This document shows, piece by piece, positions 2,174-53,290 of a stretch of 64,000 nucleotides of DNA. Numbering within the stretch: position 1 is the stretch's first letter; each line of letters opens with the position of its first letter. The DNA lies in assembly GCA_043814055.1 (NCBI GenBank), contig JBDRKL010000010.1, positions 64,001 to 128,000 of the forward strand. Direction: 5' to 3'. The stretch is from an archaeon (GTDB lineage: Archaea; Undinarchaeota; Undinarchaeia; Undinarchaeales; JBDRKL01). The translations under genes and the position numbers were made by a program. The notes below the pieces were generated by a model. The model ran no database searches. It worked only from the letters and a program-made list of their open reading frames with translations, and was not told the DNA's origin.

Positions 2174-5100
2174 ATGGCTTTAAAATCTCAGCTTAAATCT
2201 AGATTTCTTATAATCTCCATTATTTTTTTCCTGCTCTTCGGGGCTGTGGCGGTTTTTGCAGTTTATACCCCAACACCATCCGCGCCAATGCTTTGCACTC
2301 CTGATGTTGCGCACGACAAAGTAAGTTGCAGGGTTGGCGGAGACGGCAACAGGGACCCGTCTTTCTCCTGGCGCGACGGAATAAACATAGACCCAGTCAG
2401 CCAGTATTGGTCTGGGGACAACCCTGGCATGCGAATTGTTGGCCTTGATATTCCAAACAAATGCAAGATAGACCTCAGAATAGAAGGCATTTTGTGCAAC
2501 CGGCTAGACCCTTTTCCCTCATTTGAAGTGCACAAGGAGGGCACAGTCAGCGGTAATGCGTGCTTTATGGACATGGTTGACTTGCCTTTTGGGGTGGGTG
2601 GGATTTGGAACGGGTGCACAGACGTTAATGCCCCGCCTTTTGTTAACGGGGGAGTGACCTATTATTATGAAGAGCCAGCACCAGTATGCAATGATGAGTG
2701 CAGTACAGGCCAATATTCCTGTAATGGCAGTGCGCGAATTGAGTGCGGCAACTTTGACGGGGATTCCTGTCTTGAGTGGGGCAATAAGATTGATTGTGAG
2801 TATGGATGTGCGCTTGGGGTTTGCGAAGAGCCAGAACCCTTATTATATAATATTTCAGAAAAGCTTTATTTCCAGGCAGAGCCTTATCTGGAAAATACCT
2901 ATGTTAATATGGAAGATGAGTGGCAAAAAATAAGCCTCTCTCAATACCAGAAGGTCACCGCCACCGAGCCGTCATTTTTCTTTATGCAGGTTGATGAGAA
3001 CACACGAACCTTTGCGTATGATTATCCCTCTGCTTCTCTGGGTGTAAGCGACAGCTGGGCTGAGCGAAAAGCGAAAATATACGTTGAGCATCCAAAGGGC
3101 TATTCTATGAGTGGAGCATCGGTTTACACAAGCATACCTGTTAGCGATACTATTTCAATATGTGTTGGTAACGCGGTCAATGACAAGATAAACAACCTGC
3201 CAATAGAAGTTTTTGAGACACTTGGCAAAAAAGCCATTGAAGAAGCAGCCAAAGAAGGGGTTATCTGGGCTTCAGGAGTTGGCATACTCCTCGAGTCAAA
3301 GAAAGCGATGGATGTTGCAAAATTTGTTGCCTGTACTCAGGAAGATGAGAATAATTATGTTTATATTGGCACGACAAACGAGGACGGCTATGCAGAGGTC
3401 TGGCTTAGGGAAGGTCAGGATACAGAGATGATGGCTCGTTGGTATGATCTTAACACGCTCTACGGCGGGGTTTCTGTTGTGAATCAATACGGATTCCAGG
3501 GCTCAAAGAACGTGAAAATTGAAGAATGGATGGGTGGAGTTCCTGAATTCACGATAAGCACAAAGGGCAAGGCGCGTGTAATAACTATTCGCGACGAGAC
3601 TCAGAAGGATATCGACGAAGAGTTAGAGCAAATTTCCAGCTTCTTTGAGAACGAATACGGCATTGAAGTGAATCACTGGACTGCTGATGACTGGGCTTAC
3701 GCTCCAAAACCGCCTGTTGGCGGGGATGGTACTGACTTGAAAATTTACCTTGCACGCCTGGATTCCCTGCCTGGTGGTTCGCCAAATAATATTGGAGTGA
3801 ACTTCCAGAACTACAATCCAACCCTAGTTTATGAGGGTGTTGCGTGGCAGGTTTTTGATGGCACTAATTGGTATGAAGGTGATGTTTTTGGACTGGTTGC
3901 TGCCGAATCAAGCTTAAAGAAATTTTTAATAGCTGGCCTTGGTAAAAACGGATTTGAAACTGCTGTTGACGCATTCACATCAAAAGAAATGAACAAGGTC
4001 GTCAAGTGGACAGATCCTGTGCAATATGAAACTCTCAAATCGCACGTTTATCAGATTAAAGGCGCAAGCACAGTAGATATCTGGGAAGCAAAAGTTTGTA
4101 TTTCAGGCCCTAAAGACGATTGCAAAAACACAAACTCAAATGGAATTGCAGATTTTGGAAAAGTTCCAACAGGAACTTACACAATCAGTGTTGAAAAGAA
4201 AGGTTATTCAGTTGATTCAACAACTCCTTCTCCACGCCAAGTTGATTTAAACAGCCCAGGCTCAACCCAGTGGGTGAACTTTGGGATGACTGCTAACGAG
4301 TGGAATTACGAAATGCCAGAAGAAGTCCGAGTAAGTGAGCGATTCTATGTATACACCAACTTCACAAACGTGGGTGACGAGCTTGTTGAGTTCTCCTACA
4401 GCACAGAGCTTCGCGGCGCAAAGTTCACGCGGCTTATGCTTCAAGGAACAACAGTCTTCCTTGCTCCTGGAAATTCAGAGCGCGCCCGATGGGAATTCAG
4501 CGCAGACCAGGAAGGCGAAGGAACGCTATGGATAATCAAGGGCAATCAGGAAATAAATACAGGCAAGAAAATCAAGGTCGGTCCACTGCCTGATTTGGTT
4601 GCTTACATCCAGAAAATAGATGTGTGGGACTACGGCGGGCGAGTGGGGACTGATTTCCAGGTGAGTGTGGAGGTTAGGAACCGGGAGAACTACTCCGTCA
4701 ACATTACAGTTGAAATGGTAAACAAGAGCAATAACGCTGTTCTCGAAAAACATAGTTTGATACAGGTGCCCTATGGGTGGAGCATATACGGTTTTCAGGT
4801 TTGGCGCGAGGCAAATCCAGTTGATTACGTGTTCAATGTACGGTATGACGGCGCGGTAATTGACAGCAAGGACTTTACAGCTCAGGCAGGCACACAGGTT
4901 AATGTGCCTCCTGCGCCAACCAGCATAGGAGGCGGCTCTCCAAGCGTTAGAAGCCCAGCGCCTGCGAACTTGCCAGCAGATGCACCAATCGCAGGTGATA
5001 GCTCAAGTGGATCTCAAAACGCACTGCCTTCAATGCCACGCAATATCCAGCAAGATACATTTTCTACACCTGCTCAAAATGGGCCAACTGGAATGATTTC

Positions 5101-8255: not shown

Positions 8256-8584
8256 CCCAGCTTGTCGCCCTCCTTAACTTCCTGCTCCGGCTGCATTAGC
8301 ACAACGCCCTGGTCTGAATACGTGCCTAGCACGAGAACTTCAGACATGAAATTGCCAATTTGCTTTGGGGGAAAATTCACAACAGCCATAACTTGTTTTC
8401 CCACCAAATCTTCTGGCTTGTAAAGCTCTGTGAGTTGTGCGCTTGTTTTTTTTATTCCCATATGACCAAAGTCAATCTCCATTTTGTATGCGGGTACTTT
8501 TGCACCTTCAAACGACTCTGCTTTCAGCACTTTGCCTACCCTAATATCAACCTTCATGAAATCCGCGAATGTTATCTCAGGCAT
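8252..8584 (-). CDS. csaA: tRNA-binding OB-fold protein (CsaA/Trbp111)
   Basis: 'VDIRVG', 'VVNFPPKQIGNFMSEVLVLG' CsaA signature. Confidence 0.9.
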   Translation of the reverse strand: MPEITFADFMKVDIRVGKVLKAESFEGAKVPAYKMEIDFGHMGIKKTSAQLTELYKPEDLVGKQVMAVVNFPPKQIGNFMSEVLVLGTYSDQGVVLMQPEQEVKEGDKLG

Positions 8585-10973
8585 CCAAACTCACCTTCAG
8601 CCCTTCCCCTTCCTTAATCACAACTTCTTCAGCCCGCGCAGTGCCTTTTATGTCAAGTTCCAGCAACCCAAGCAACTTCTTGTTGCCTTCAATCGTGACT
8701 GTCTTAACCTCAGCTCCGAGCGATATGCTCTTCTCCTGCTTTGCCTGCCGCACTCCAGCCACAACCTGCAGGAGAAGCTCGCCAGCTTCCTTTGCCTCTG
8801 CATCAATCCATTCTTCCTTAACTTCAGGCCACTTTGAAGTGTGAATGCTCTTCTCTTTCTCTCTCTTTGCGTAGCTCCAGCTGAAAATTTCCTCAGTTAT
8901 GAACGGCATAATCGGCGCCATCATCTTCAAACATGAAAGCAGAACGTGATAAAGCGTGTACTGCGCGCCTTCCTTGCCCTCAGGGTACTTGTCCGGGTTG
9001 TACAGCCTGTCCTTAACAATTTCCAGATAATTGTCGCAAAGAATGTGCCAGAAGAAATTCTCCACATTCATCTTGGTTTTTGAATACTCATATTTCTCAA
9101 AGAAATCAGTTGATTCCTGCACTATATCATTCAATTTTGCAAGAATCCACTTGTCCACAACCCTGAGCTTCTCTTCCCCAGTCGGCTTGTAGCCCTCTAG
9201 GTGCATCTGTACGAACTTTGACGCATTGAATAGCTTGGTCGCGAACTTCATTCCGGTCTGCAGGTCTTTTTCCTGGAACGGCATATCCTCGCCGAGCGTT
9301 GAGCCAGCTGCCCAGAAGCGCAGCGCGTCCGCGGAGTATTTCTCAATTGTTGCCTGCGGCTCAACCACGTTGCCCTTTGACTTTGACATCTTCTTGCCTT
9401 TTGGGTCAAGCGCCCAGCCGCTAATCATTATGTCCTTCCACGGCGGCTTGTTGTAGTACAGTTTTGATTTTACCACAGTATTGAAGAGCCAGAACGTAAT
9501 TATGTCGTGCGCCTGTGGTCTGAGGCTCATCGGGAAGAGCTTGTCAAACAGTTCAGGGTATAGCCCGGCTGCAATCTGCGGTGTATGAGAGCTGGTCATC
9601 CAGGTGTCAAACACGTCCTTCTCAGGCTCAAAGTCGCTTGAGCCGCACTTGCACTTCTGCTTTGGCTTGTCCTTGAGCGGGTCAACAGGCAATTGCGACT
9701 CGTCAGCAATAATTGATTCCCCGCACTTTTTGCAATACCACACTGGAAGCGGAACTCCGAAGTGCCTCTGCCGCGAGATGCACCAGTCCCACTTAAGCCC
9801 GTCAATCCAGTTGTCATACCTGTGCTTCATGTACGCTGGGAACCAGTTCATCTCTCCCCCTGCGCCGAGGAAGTCAGCTTTCAGGTCCATGTAGCGGATG
9901 AACCACTGCTCAGTCATCAGAATTTCAAGGTCTGTTCCGCACTTGTCGTGCGTATTCACAACGTGCTTCATCGGCTCTGCTTTCTCAAGCCGTCCATCCT
10001 TTTCCAGGTCCTGGGTGATTGCGTCGCGCGCCTCTTTCATCTTCAAGCCTTTGTACTGACCAGCTTTCTCATTGAGCGTGCCGTCCTTGTTAAGTATTTC
10101 AATCGGGGTTATGCCAAAGTCCTCAACCCACTGAACATCGTCCATATCTCCAAATGTGCAGTGATACACAGCTCCAGTTCCGAACTCAGGATCAGCGTCT
10201 TTGTTAGCATAAATCTCAACTTCCCTGTCAAAACCAAGTGGTAGAATCGCTTTTTTACCCACAAATTCCTTGTAGCGCTTGTCATTTGGGTGCACGAAAA
10301 CTGCAACGCAGGCTGGCAAAAGCTCAGGCCTTGTTGTTGCGATTGTGATTGGCTTTCCCTCAGTTGTGTCCATTTTGAAGTAAACGAATTTTGATTCGCG
10401 CTCCTCGTCCTTCATCTCCACCTGCGCAATCGCGGTCTGGCACTCCGGGCACCACATGAATGGGCTCCGCTTGCGATAAACGCGGTTTATCTTGTGCAAA
10501 TCCAGGAAAGATTTCTGCGCTATTTTCTGGCAGTGCTCATTGATTGTTGTGTAAGTAACATTAAAATCAGCAGAAGTTCCGATGCGCTTCCAGTCCTCAA
10601 TATACTGCGGTCTAAGCTCTTTCTCAAGTGTTTCAAGGCAGAGCTTGACGAAATCAGCGCGCTCCATCCGGGTTGATTTGACTTTCTTCATCTTCTCAAT
10701 CAAGCGCTCAGTAGGGAGTCCGTTGTCGTCAGTTCCGAAAGGGTAGAAGAGGTTGTAGCCGCGCATTCGCTTGTACCGCGCGACAAAGTCCATTTGAGAG
10801 TATGAAAAAGCGTGTCCTATGTGCATTTTGCCTGAGACAGTTGGTGGCGGAGTGTCTATTGAATAAATAGGCGCATTGCTCTTTGGGTCAAAGGCGTAAG
10901 TTTTGTCCTTGTCCCAAGTGTCGCGCCACTTCTTCTCGGCTTCCTTTGCGTTATAGTGCTTGGATGGGTCCAT
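8577..10973 (-). CDS. valS: Valine--tRNA ligase (archaeal type)
   Basis: 'IDTPPPTVSG', HIGH, 'WCISRQR', KMSKS. Confidence 0.97.
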   Translation of the reverse strand: MDPSKHYNAKEAEKKWRDTWDKDKTYAFDPKSNAPIYSIDTPPPTVSGKMHIGHAFSYSQMDFVARYKRMRGYNLFYPFGTDDNGLPTERLIEKMKKVKSTRMERADFVKLCLETLEKELRPQYIEDWKRIGTSADFNVTYTTINEHCQKIAQKSFLDLHKINRVYRKRSPFMWCPECQTAIAQVEMKDEERESKFVYFKMDTTEGKPITIATTRPELLPACVAVFVHPNDKRYKEFVGKKAILPLGFDREVEIYANKDADPEFGTGAVYHCTFGDMDDVQWVEDFGITPIEILNKDGTLNEKAGQYKGLKMKEARDAITQDLEKDGRLEKAEPMKHVVNTHDKCGTDLEILMTEQWFIRYMDLKADFLGAGGEMNWFPAYMKHRYDNWIDGLKWDWCISRQRHFGVPLPVWYCKKCGESIIADESQLPVDPLKDKPKQKCKCGSSDFEPEKDVFDTWMTSSHTPQIAAGLYPELFDKLFPMSLRPQAHDIITFWLFNTVVKSKLYYNKPPWKDIMISGWALDPKGKKMSKSKGNVVEPQATIEKYSADALRFWAAGSTLGEDMPFQEKDLQTGMKFATKLFNASKFVQMHLEGYKPTGEEKLRVVDKWILAKLNDIVQESTDFFEKYEYSKTKMNVENFFWHILCDNYLEIVKDRLYNPDKYPEGKEGAQYTLYHVLLSCLKMMAPIMPFITEEIFSWSYAKREKEKSIHTSKWPEVKEEWIDAEAKEAGELLLQVVAGVRQAKQEKSISLGAEVKTVTIEGNKKLLGLLELDIKGTARAEEVVIKEGEGLKVSLDA

Positions 10974-11015
10974 TTTAAGATTTTAAAAGAATATGAGCCG
11001 GGCTAAACCCGATGT

Positions 11016-11045
11016 TCAAACTACAACAACTGAAGAGTTGCTCAT
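11016..11045 (-). CDS. Putative valS leader peptide MSNSSVVVV
   Basis: Minus strand reads ATG AGC AAC TCT TCA GTT GTT GTA GTT TGA, ending 42 nt before the valS ATG. Confidence 0.7.
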   Translation of the reverse strand: MSNSSVVVV

Positions 11046-11067
11046 AAGGAGAGTATTGAGTGCTGGG

Positions 11068-11075
11068 TATAAAAA
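11068..11075 (-). promoter_or_regulatory. TATA box for the valS leader transcript
   Basis: TTTTTATA on the minus strand about 23 nt upstream of the leader ATG, consistent with a leaderless uORF. Confidence 0.55.
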
Positions 11076-11081
11076 GGTTAC

Positions 11082-11879
11082 TTAAAAACTCCCCAGCGTG
11101 CTCTGCGCAATCTCGTCCAAGCTTACGCGTTGCCCGTCCTTTGCCGCGATTGTCCTGACTCCAGTTTCATCCTGAATCTTGCTGGCTTCGTGCTCCGGTC
11201 CTGCCTCAAGACTCTTCATTCCGAAATGAGTTAGAACGCAGAGCTTCGGCCTGACTTCATTGAGTATGTTCACAACGTCCTCGCTGCACAAATGCCATTT
11301 TATCCTCTCATTACCTGATCTGAGCAGGCCGATTATCAAAATATCAATATCTTTATACTCTTCTGCAAGCCCTTCAAAATACTCTGTGTCGCTTGTGTAA
11401 GCAATCTTTTTCCCATCATATTCAAGCACAAAGCCGAACGTGCTCGGGTCCTTGTGCTGTGCTTTTGTTGCCCTGAACTTGACACTGCCGAGCTCATACT
11501 CATCACCTGGCTTAACCAGGTGCTTTTCTGCGAGATTCTCAGCGTGGAAACTGGATATGCAGGGCTCAATGTCCTCAACCCCGCTCAGGACGGACTCTGA
11601 AGCAAGAAGAACGCCGCGCTTTTTCGTGGCGCTGCTGGTCATTGCCTCAATCATCACGTTCATATCAGTGCAGTGGTCTGGGTGGCCGTGGGTTGTGATT
11701 AAATGCGTAACTTTGCTCGCCCACTCCTGACTCTGCCTGCACCGAACTAATGCGCCCGGCCCAGGGTCTGCGTGGATTACAGTATCACCCAAGTTGAAGC
11801 GGATGCCTCCTGTTGCGCGCTTTTGCGTAAGCATCACAAACCTGCCGCCGCCGGTGCCGAGGAATACTATGGTGTCCAT
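11082..11879 (-). CDS. Metallo-beta-lactamase-fold hydrolase
   Basis: 'FLGTGGG', 'DPGPG', HGHPDH (HxHxDH), 'YTSDT', 'THFG'. Confidence 0.9.
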   Translation of the reverse strand: MDTIVFLGTGGGRFVMLTQKRATGGIRFNLGDTVIHADPGPGALVRCRQSQEWASKVTHLITTHGHPDHCTDMNVMIEAMTSSATKKRGVLLASESVLSGVEDIEPCISSFHAENLAEKHLVKPGDEYELGSVKFRATKAQHKDPSTFGFVLEYDGKKIAYTSDTEYFEGLAEEYKDIDILIIGLLRSGNERIKWHLCSEDVVNILNEVRPKLCVLTHFGMKSLEAGPEHEASKIQDETGVRTIAAKDGQRVSLDEIAQSTLGSF

Positions 11880-19363: not shown

Positions 19364-19440
19364 GGGCCCGTAGCTTAGTCTGGTGGAGCGTTCGACTGAT
19401 AATCGAGAGGTCCTGTGTTCGAATCACAGCGGGCCCACCA
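19364..19440 (+). tRNA. tRNA-Ile(GAT), CCA encoded
   Basis: Full cloverleaf; TTCGA-CT GAT AA-TCGAG anticodon arm. Confidence 0.97.
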
Positions 19441-39984: not shown

Positions 39985-40073
39985 TGGTGCGGGAGATGGG
40001 ATTTGAACCCACGGAGGTACTAAACCACAGGATCTTAAGTCCTGCCCCTTAGGCCAGGCTCGGGTACTCCCGC
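39985..40073 (-). tRNA. tRNA-Leu(TAA), CCA encoded
   Basis: GCGGGAG/CTCCCGC acceptor, CAGGA-CT TAA GA-TCCTG, long variable arm. Confidence 0.96.
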
Positions 40074-40727: not shown

Positions 40728-40829
40728 AAGACCTTATTAATGAAAAGATGAGTTTTTATACGTTACTACTGGTGAGTTGCAGAGAGTTGGGAAGGTATAT
40801 TAAGTTTTGAAATGAATAGTACAAAAGTT

Positions 40830-40961
40830 GGGGTCGTGGTCTAGTTTGGTATGATACTACCTCGGGGTTGCGTGGGTCGTGAGCATAAGTTGAAATATAC
40901 TTCCGAGCGACACGCGACAAATAGGTAGTGGTCGCAAGTTCAAATCTTGCCGATCCCACCA
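40830..40961 (+). tRNA. tRNA-Pro with ~55-nt anticodon-loop intron (40868-40922); anticodon GGG or CGG
   Basis: GGGGTCG/CGATCCC acceptor, Pro-type D arm, CTACC/GGTAG stem, T arm, CCA; directly upstream of proS. Confidence 0.75.
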
Positions 40962-40995
40962 AATTTATTTAAATCAAGCAAACATACTCAAAACT

Positions 40996-53203: not shown

Positions 53204-53290
53204 GCCGAGGTGGCACAATCTGGTAATGCGCGACCCTGGAAAGGTCGTTTCCTCACGGATATGCAAGTTCAAATCTTGCCCTCGGCGCCA
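53204..53290 (+). tRNA. tRNA-Ser(GGA), CCA encoded
   Basis: GCCGAGG/CCTCGGC acceptor, CGACC-CT GGA AA-GGTCG, long variable arm, G73. Confidence 0.96.

Follow-up and report, generated by a model that had tools for sequence, protein, structure and literature searches.

Cognate-codon leaders before valS and ileS in an order of small archaea are candidate ribosome-dependent attenuators

The gene for valine--tRNA ligase in an archaeon of the order Undinarchaeales is preceded by a short leader with a run of valine codons, which we consider here as a candidate ribosome-dependent attenuator. The leader lies in a 64,000-nucleotide (nt) stretch of contig JBDRKL010000010.1 (assembly GCA_043814055.1, positions 64,001 to 128,000), hereafter called the window, and coordinates below refer to it unless another locus is named. 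The gene, valS (8577–10973, minus strand), encodes 798 amino acids and is identified by model NF009687 (1048.8 bits against a cut-off of 738) together with the Pfam domains tRNA-synt_1 and Anticodon_1.

All elements of the leader are on the minus strand as well. A TATA box, TTTTTATA (11068–11075), has a purine-rich GTAACC on its 5' side that resembles a B recognition element, and its TTTATA hexamer ends 22 nt before the ATG that begins an upstream open reading frame (uORF; 11016–11045). This uORF has nine codons and a TGA stop (ATG AGC AAC TCT TCA GTT GTT GTA GTT TGA), encodes MSNSSVVVV, and includes four consecutive valine codons, GTT GTT GTA GTT (11019–11030), which are the proposed sensor. 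Four nt past the stop codon comes an inner GC hairpin, CGGG-TTTAG-CCCG (10999–11011), followed by GCTCATA (10992–10998; segment B), whose end is 24 nt past the uORF stop, and directly thereafter by the U-rich tract TTCTTTT (10985–10991), the proposed site of premature termination. In minimum free energy (MFE) folds, segment B is the 3' strand of a closing helix, and its partner, segment A, is (T)ATGAGC (11041–11047) at the predicted transcript 5' end, which includes the uORF start codon. The valS ATG follows at 10973, leaving 42 nt between the uORF stop and the gene. An original prediction, made from the letters of the window alone, had proposed a valine-sensing attenuator here, and its coordinates for the TATA box, uORF, hairpin, GCTCATA, TTCTTTT and valS ATG are all correct on the minus strand.

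The source assembly, from an uncultured organism, comprises 0.98 Mb in 14 contigs, is 82% complete and has 46.7% G+C. In the collection that we searched, the genome is the sole member of its family (f1; other families of the order are labelled f2 to f5), and it belongs to an order of 13 and a phylum of 17 species genomes. Elsewhere, the closest valyl-tRNA synthetases (ValRS) are in records titled Woesearchaeota, Nanoarchaeota, Pacearchaeota and Aenigmatarchaeota, an affinity by which we class the source organism as a small-genome archaeon of the DPANN kind.

The valine run is exceptional within its genome. We collected all ATG-initiated open reading frames (ORFs) of 4–25 codons on both strands of the 0.98 Mb genome, 11,711 in total. 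A run of four valines occurs in one of them, the valS uORF, and a run of four isoleucines in two, one of which is MNTDSEIIIIR before ileS, the isoleucyl-tRNA synthetase gene. Valine accounts for 7.0% of codons genome-wide and for four of the nine in the valS uORF. Twelve intergenic short ORFs of the genome have a TATA-like hexamer 21–25 nt upstream and a same-strand gene at most 200 nt downstream, and the valS and ileS leaders are two of the twelve. Judged by its codons and its setting, the valS uORF is beyond chance.

Its promoter geometry is that of a gene. Genome-wide, TATA-like hexamers end 22, 23, 24 and 25 nt before ORF start codons in 50, 62, 77 and 36 cases, compared with a background of about six per position, and this peak indicates that most messages in the source genome are leaderless or nearly so. 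The distance of 22 nt between TTTATA and the uORF ATG falls within the peak. TATA spacing by itself predicts that the uORF ATG forms the 5' end of the transcript, that is, a leaderless start. Across the 14 valS and ileS leaders described below, the hexamer ends 22–27 nt before the uORF ATG in 11, and 30–33 nt before it in three f3 valS leaders, where segment A occupies that short 5' stretch. Contigs from one metatranscriptome run include a 208-nt contig inside valS (9302–9509) and a 36-nt partial piece; they leave the leader uncovered, so they have no bearing on its transcription.

The uORF is in frame with valS. An N-terminal extension of valS through the TGA is ruled out by a second in-frame stop (TAA) between the two frames and by the f3 uORFs, which are not all in frame. 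A separate valS promoter within the last 25 nt (TTTTAAAA at −18 to −11) was rejected as too near the ATG. Re-initiation after the uORF, 42 nt upstream, is a possible route to valS translation.

A second leader of this type precedes ileS. The original prediction had proposed looking for cognate-codon uORFs at other aminoacyl-tRNA synthetase genes, and in the source genome MNTDSEIIIIR is encoded 122 to 86 nt upstream of a 976-amino-acid ORF identified as ileS by TIGR00392 (935.6 bits against a cut-off of 621.4). This leader is outside the window (G000:C12:21893–21992, minus strand; uORF at 3487–3452 (−) of locus L032). Its isoleucine codons are ATT ATC ATA ATA, and the uORF starts 23 nt behind a TATA-like TTTAAA. 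Across 30 ileS loci, an isoleucine-rich uORF precedes ileS in 10 of the 13 order genomes, spread over families f1, f2, f3 and f4, and in none of three f5 genomes and none of 17 genomes outside the order. The peptides are MNTDSEIIIIR, MNTDTSIIIIIR (two genomes), MNTDTQIIIIIR, MSTIIETIIIRN, MSTISGIISIIIRE, MSAISGTISIIRE, MVYTAGIIIAIGIAA, MKSTASIIIVIGIVA and MARTASIIIVIGIVA. They contain 4–6 isoleucines in 11–15 codons (ATT, ATC, ATA), versus 7.3% isoleucine genome-wide, and TATA-like hexamers end 22–27 nt before each ATG.

A covariance model of the ileS leader gave one match per genome, always before ileS, in 10 of the 17 phylum genomes, and no match in f5 or in four other families of the phylum. 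The ileS leader is probably ancestral to the order. Family f5 is the only one in the order that lacks the ileS leader, and gene replacement may have removed it there; the N-termini of f5 isoleucyl-tRNA synthetases are 51% identical to that of the source genome, below the value for some archaea outside the order (54%). By their codons, then, the two leaders form a pair in this order of small archaea, valine before valS and isoleucine before ileS.

Valine-rich uORFs before valS recur in one other family. We compared 30 valS loci (the source genome, 11 of its order, four of its phylum and 14 other archaea) and added the 13th order genome. Four of the 13 order genomes have a valine-rich uORF before valS: the source genome (MSNSSVVVV) and three f3 genomes of one genus (MITNTVVNV, MKTNVMVVV and MTSNIVVVI). 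Every one of the four has nine codons and a TGA stop, with 3–4 valines that shift among positions 5–9 while their number is kept. Position 7 is valine in all four, encoded by GTT, GTA, GTT and GTC, three different codons. Synonymous variation and moving valine positions are the pattern expected if the codons, rather than a fixed peptide, are selected. The original prediction had named related valS loci, with synonymous valine codons, as a place to look; the three f3 uORFs vary theirs among GTT, GTA and GTC, and the two comparisons that it proposed, at valS of relatives and at other synthetase genes, both support its attenuator interpretation at the level of sequence.

Directly upstream of the valS leader in the window is a gene for an MBL-fold hydrolase (11082–11879, minus strand), whose stop codon lies 6 nt before the TATA box. 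Family f5 keeps this MBL-to-valS synteny, and there valS comes directly after a TATA-like promoter (its tttata hexamer lies about 27 nt from the start), without an intervening uORF; from this comparison, the leader has the look of a 72-nt module set between a promoter and its gene. In the ValRS tree, f3, f4 and f5 form one group (97/99) and f1 is unplaced, so both a single origin with losses and two gains are possible. A covariance model of the valS leader matched its four training loci and one further site at E 0.27, a chance match inside a membrane-protein ORF. The f3 valS loci (L003, L004, L005) also have features that the source genome lacks: a second ATG shares bases with the uORF stop (ATGA) and begins a further short frame, of 35, 14 and 4 codons, and a second hairpin with a U-rich loop (CUUCACAG...CUGUGAAG) stands between leader and valS.

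The four valS and ten ileS leaders share one RNA architecture. We cut each leader just after its U-run and computed the MFE fold. In all 14, the RNA 5' end (segment A) pairs with a segment B directly before the U-run. Segment A consists of uORF codons 1–4 in the ileS leaders and the source valS leader, and of 6–10 nt before the ATG in f3 valS. The loop closed by the A:B helix holds the uORF and one or two inner stems, and the distance from the uORF stop to the end of B is 18–24 nt throughout. The complementarity that the original prediction had pointed out in the source genome, between GCTCATA (10998–10992) and TATGAGC (11047–11041), is thus one instance of a family-specific helix between the 5' end and the post-stop segment that recurs in 14 of 14 leaders.

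The helix covaries: A:B sequences are family-specific yet complementary throughout. At ileS, the pairing is CACAG:CUGUG in f1 and f3, GAGCAC(A):(U)GUGCUC in f4 (L040 has one G-U), and GCACCGC:GCGGUGC and GGUUUACAC:GUGUAAACC in f2. At valS, it is AUGAGC:GCUCAU in the source genome and AGCUAGA:UCUAGCU in f3, with an A-U to U-A swap in L005. Native ileS A:B duplexes have a mean of −12.4 kcal/mol, versus −8.05 kcal/mol (sd 2.4, n = 72) for cross-family pairs and −5.6 kcal/mol for shuffled A. Shuffled A segments were as good as the native one in 0–78 of 1000 cases per ileS leader and in 7–19 of 1000 for valS leaders; the source valS duplex, at −11.0 kcal/mol, was matched by 12 of 1000.

The GC hairpin after the valS stop is kept in f3 with its strands swapped, GGG...CCC in f1 versus CCC(C)...GGG(G) in f3, and with unrelated loops (UUUAG, UGCA, AUGA and GUGU across the four leaders). 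In ileS leaders, a conserved hairpin, GUGCUCC-[UUUUUUCAAAAUUUCU]-GGGGCAC, follows the uORF. There, B has an alternative partner further downstream, the conserved segment C (GGGGCAC), in a hairpin whose loop contains the U-run (UUUUCAAAAAUUU), and this is the MFE state in most full-length folds. All 14 leaders have a T-rich tail: the 10 nt after B contain 4–9 T, with a longest run of 4–6.

These features suggest how a ribosome could control valS. Transcription would start about 23 nt behind the TATA box, at or beside the A of the uORF ATG, and the nine-codon uORF would be translated as a leaderless message on emergence. The A:B helix would enclose the whole uORF and so could close only when the uORF is free of ribosomes; geometry argues that helix and ribosome are mutually exclusive, because a ribosome anywhere on the 27–45 nt uORF would fill the A:B loop. 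When Val-tRNA is plentiful, the ribosome would finish the nine codons and depart, A:B would close stacked on the GC hairpin with the polymerase at the weak U-run, and the transcript would be ended, or shut off by other means, ahead of valS. Under a shortage of Val-tRNA, the ribosome would wait at the four valine codons and keep A:B open, the polymerase would pass the U-run, and valS would be made. Cognate codons would in this way make ribosome dwell time on the uORF depend on charged tRNA-Val, or on charged tRNA-Ile at ileS. The sign would be homeostatic, with less charged tRNA-Val giving more ValRS.

Our confidence differs among the parts of this model. We are fairly confident that valS has in the uORF a functional sensor of Val-tRNA. 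That the leader as a whole is a ribosome-dependent attenuator of valS, measuring the supply of charged tRNA-Val, seems to us reasonably probable. Whether premature termination is the read-out appears evenly poised, and the start of transcription, uORF translation and stalling are likewise steps that we infer. Archaeal RNA polymerase terminates at oligo-T, according to a 2026 review (PMC13675443). What a regulated site needs is a U-run that is too weak on its own. The valS leader has no separate antiterminator. More tentatively, we suggest that an order of DPANN-like archaea may use ribosome-mediated transcription attenuation, to date described from bacteria alone, to adjust two tRNA synthetases. 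The design would be a minimal 'ribosome-in-the-loop', with a leaderless uORF inside a helix between RNA 5' end and post-stop segment, and this helix would make a terminator of the weak U-run only while no ribosome is on the uORF.

Several observations weigh against this model, and the first group concerns distribution. Valine-rich uORFs are absent from the valS loci of families f2, f4 and f5, and altogether from 26 of the 30 loci compared above. A metagenomic survey gave none in 36 usable valS loci (38 examined, one of them truncated and one without an N-terminal match; eight distant loci, L102–L109, were left out), and 26 further archaeal (DPANN) genome loci also gave none (11 bacterial loci, L146–L156, were left out); the two sets overlap partly in sequence. 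In most valS loci without the uORF, a TATA-like box stands about 24 nt ahead of the start codon of valS. Within the sequences compared, the valS leader is known from two independent lineages only, the source genome and one genus of three genomes.

A second group concerns termination, folding and the start of valS, as well as ileS. The U-run of the source valS leader is weak, with a longest run of 4 T, and a scan for consensus terminators did not call the site. Across 20 kb of the window, hairpin-plus-T terminators show no enrichment, at 20 versus 20.8 expected. Compared with mononucleotide shuffles, whole-leader folds are of ordinary stability (z of −1.1 to −2.3). In the source genome, neither a Shine-Dalgarno-like motif nor a separate promoter is visible upstream of valS. 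At ileS, the B:C hairpin has a role that the attenuator model does not explain; it is 91% paired and has no covariation, with five of nine pairs invariant and 415 of 500 shuffles reaching the observed score. Conceivably, it locks the read-through state, serves as a binding site or belongs to a translational switch. Finally, the three f3 ileS genes (L035, L036, L037) have a further TATA-like hexamer, which ends 23 nt ahead of their ATG, and f3 ileS probably has a second promoter of its own. In L036, an insertion of about 60 nt, which folds into a separate hairpin, has displaced this second TATA.

The serious rival keeps the sensor and changes the read-out: a ribosome stalled on the leaderless uORF would expose the valS start or control re-initiation, with no termination. 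We judge this unlikely, though it has real points in its favor. The closest known system, the mycobacterial poly-Cys leaderless small ORFs (sORFs; bioRxiv 10.1101/834739), works by this mechanism, and hairpin terminators are not a general feature of the source genome. Two of the three f3 valS leaders have their second hairpin just before a purine-rich GGGAGG or GGGG near the valS ATG, the MFE fold of L003 pairs the U-run with that stretch, and two f2 leaders leave 14 nt between the end of the conserved hairpin and the start codon of ileS. However, a translational switch would have to work in the source genome without a Shine-Dalgarno-like motif before valS, and there the free and uORF-masked folds differ little around the valS ATG and do not sequester it; a switch of this sort may exist in f3, at L003. 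Moreover, the sole feature downstream of B common to all 14 leaders is the U-rich tail, not a sequestered start, and most ileS genes start 62–123 nt beyond B.

Other explanations dispense with the sensor altogether. The conserved 5'-terminal closing helix and GC hairpin could belong to a structured RNA, either an operator for a protein or enzyme or a 5' stability element, in which the frame is open incidentally and its codons go unread; in the B:C hairpin of ileS and its loop, it is the sequence that is kept, without covariation, as expected of a binding site. We consider this improbable, for it leaves unexplained the valine richness before valS and isoleucine richness before ileS, the synonymous and position-shifting cognate codons of constant number, and an ATG at gene-start distance from the TATA box; in addition, the valS hairpin loops are unconserved and have no anticodon-like triplet in common, and no Rfam family matches. 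A promoter geometry like that of a real leaderless gene would also suit a uORF that encodes a small hydrophobic peptide with its own function, placed before valS incidentally or for co-expression only. Nine residues are very short for such a product, the peptides are poorly conserved between families beyond their valine or isoleucine richness, and the match to the amino acid of the downstream enzyme occurs twice, all of which make this idea very improbable. Chance alone, in the form of a low-complexity (GTT)n-like stretch that falls in frame behind an ATG in an AT-rich spacer, we can hardly credit. It is true that GTTGTTGTAGTT is a near-repeat and that most relatives lack a valine-rich uORF, but the four-valine ORF is unique in the genome, ileS offers a parallel case, and in a second family the nucleotides differ while length, stop codon and architecture are kept.

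We also looked beyond valS and ileS. Nineteen aminoacyl-tRNA synthetase genes of the source genome were located with Pfam families (those of class I LysRS and CysRS were not searched separately), and inspection of their upstream regions gave no cognate-codon uORF other than the two described. MNSTKVGVVV, upstream of a class II synthetase gene at C10:104995, was dismissed for its overlap with a tRNA-like sequence. No leucine-rich uORF precedes leuS at nine order loci, the source genome included; four genomes had no match to the bacterial-type LeuRS query. LeuRS of the source genome (L033:1377–4037 (+), G000:C6) scores as bacterial type, with 991.4 bits for TIGR00396 versus 305.3 for the archaeal TIGR00395, which suggests that leuS is a transferred gene. 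The bacterial-type enzyme is common to nine genomes of the order.

Some further observations concern the surroundings of these genes. Lookalikes of a tRNA T-arm and acceptor end lie just upstream of leuS (L033:1220–1300), of f2 valS (L006, L007, L009) and of the class II synthetase gene (window about 40800–40990). ARAGORN called no tRNA at any of these sequences, which may be intron-containing or split tRNA genes. The window itself contains genes for tRNA-Ile (GAT; 19364–19440, plus strand, 8 kb from valS), tRNA-Leu (TAA; 39985–40073) and tRNA-Ser (GGA; 53204–53290). Directly upstream of the ileS leader is a gene for an APC-family amino-acid permease (L032:3538–4902 (−)), whose best match is the general amino-acid transporter model 2A0306 (291.1 bits), followed by the branched-chain model BcaP (253.9 bits, below its cut-off of 690).

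If the attenuator model is right, hairpins can gate termination by archaeal RNA polymerase in vivo, and the coupling of transcription to translation is exploited for archaeal gene control. Two parallel codon-specific leaders would offer a concrete system for studying coupling, hairpin-gated termination and the translation of genes behind leaderless uORFs. Small DPANN genomes are in general unable to make their own amino acids, and the leaders suggest how such organisms may adjust their synthetases to the valine and isoleucine at hand.

The original prediction had called cognate-codon leaders poorly documented in archaea. On archaeal leader peptides, attenuation, DPANN uORFs and ileS or valS leaders, our literature searches gave bacterial work only, and we found no report of leader-peptide attenuation in archaea or of a cognate-codon leader before an archaeal tRNA synthetase gene, in a literature from which subscription journals are mostly missing, so that an earlier mention is possible. 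The word attenuation is absent from the 2026 review of termination across domains (PMC13675443).

Among known regulators, tRNA-binding and tRNA-mimicking RNAs act on the same kind of gene by other means. In operators of the thrS type, the synthetase binds a conserved anticodon-like loop that mimics its cognate tRNA; the hairpin loops of the four valS leaders differ and share no valine anticodon triplet. T-box riboswitches before ileS and valS in Firmicutes and Actinobacteria serve the same genes and the same signal, the charging of the cognate tRNA. Unlike the proposed uORF sensor, they read uncharged tRNA directly, via a specifier codon and the T-box sequence, without translation. In many bacteria, valS and ileS are under T-box control and not that of leader peptides, as stated in PMC1262725. 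An Rfam search of window positions 10850–11150 gave no family match at E up to 10, T-box included. The sole Rfam match to the ileS leader is to a cis-regulatory family, Termite-leu RNA (RF01730), and does not rise above chance (E = 0.79; 15.7 bits, where the gathering score is 51); the valS leader does not match it.

Leader-peptide attenuation is a textbook bacterial mechanism, known from trp, his, ilv and leu and from pheST with its Phe-rich leader. The valS leader resembles these attenuators in its short uORF with a run of cognate codons, helices that overlap the uORF, a U-run before the gene and stalling as the proposed signal, and it resembles pheST further in that the target is an aminoacyl-tRNA synthetase. 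It differs in being archaeal, in a uORF predicted to be leaderless and without a Shine-Dalgarno sequence, and in the weakness of its U-run. In place of a four-segment set with 1:2, 2:3 and 3:4 pairings, a single helix between the 5' end and the post-stop segment encloses the uORF, and archaeal termination, unlike that in bacterial attenuation, does not generally need hairpins.

The mycobacterial poly-Cys system (bioRxiv 10.1101/834739) resembles the model proposed here in several respects: a leaderless sORF is the first cistron, its cognate codons are consecutive, a stalled ribosome blocks an inhibitory RNA duplex, and one amino-acid signal serves several loci. It differs in being bacterial and in governing Cys metabolism genes. 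In the archaeal leaders, the duplex is followed by a U-run and the downstream genes encode tRNA synthetases. Set beside these systems, the valS and ileS leaders look to be the first good archaeal candidate for control of tRNA-charging enzymes through a sensing ribosome, in the bacterial style.

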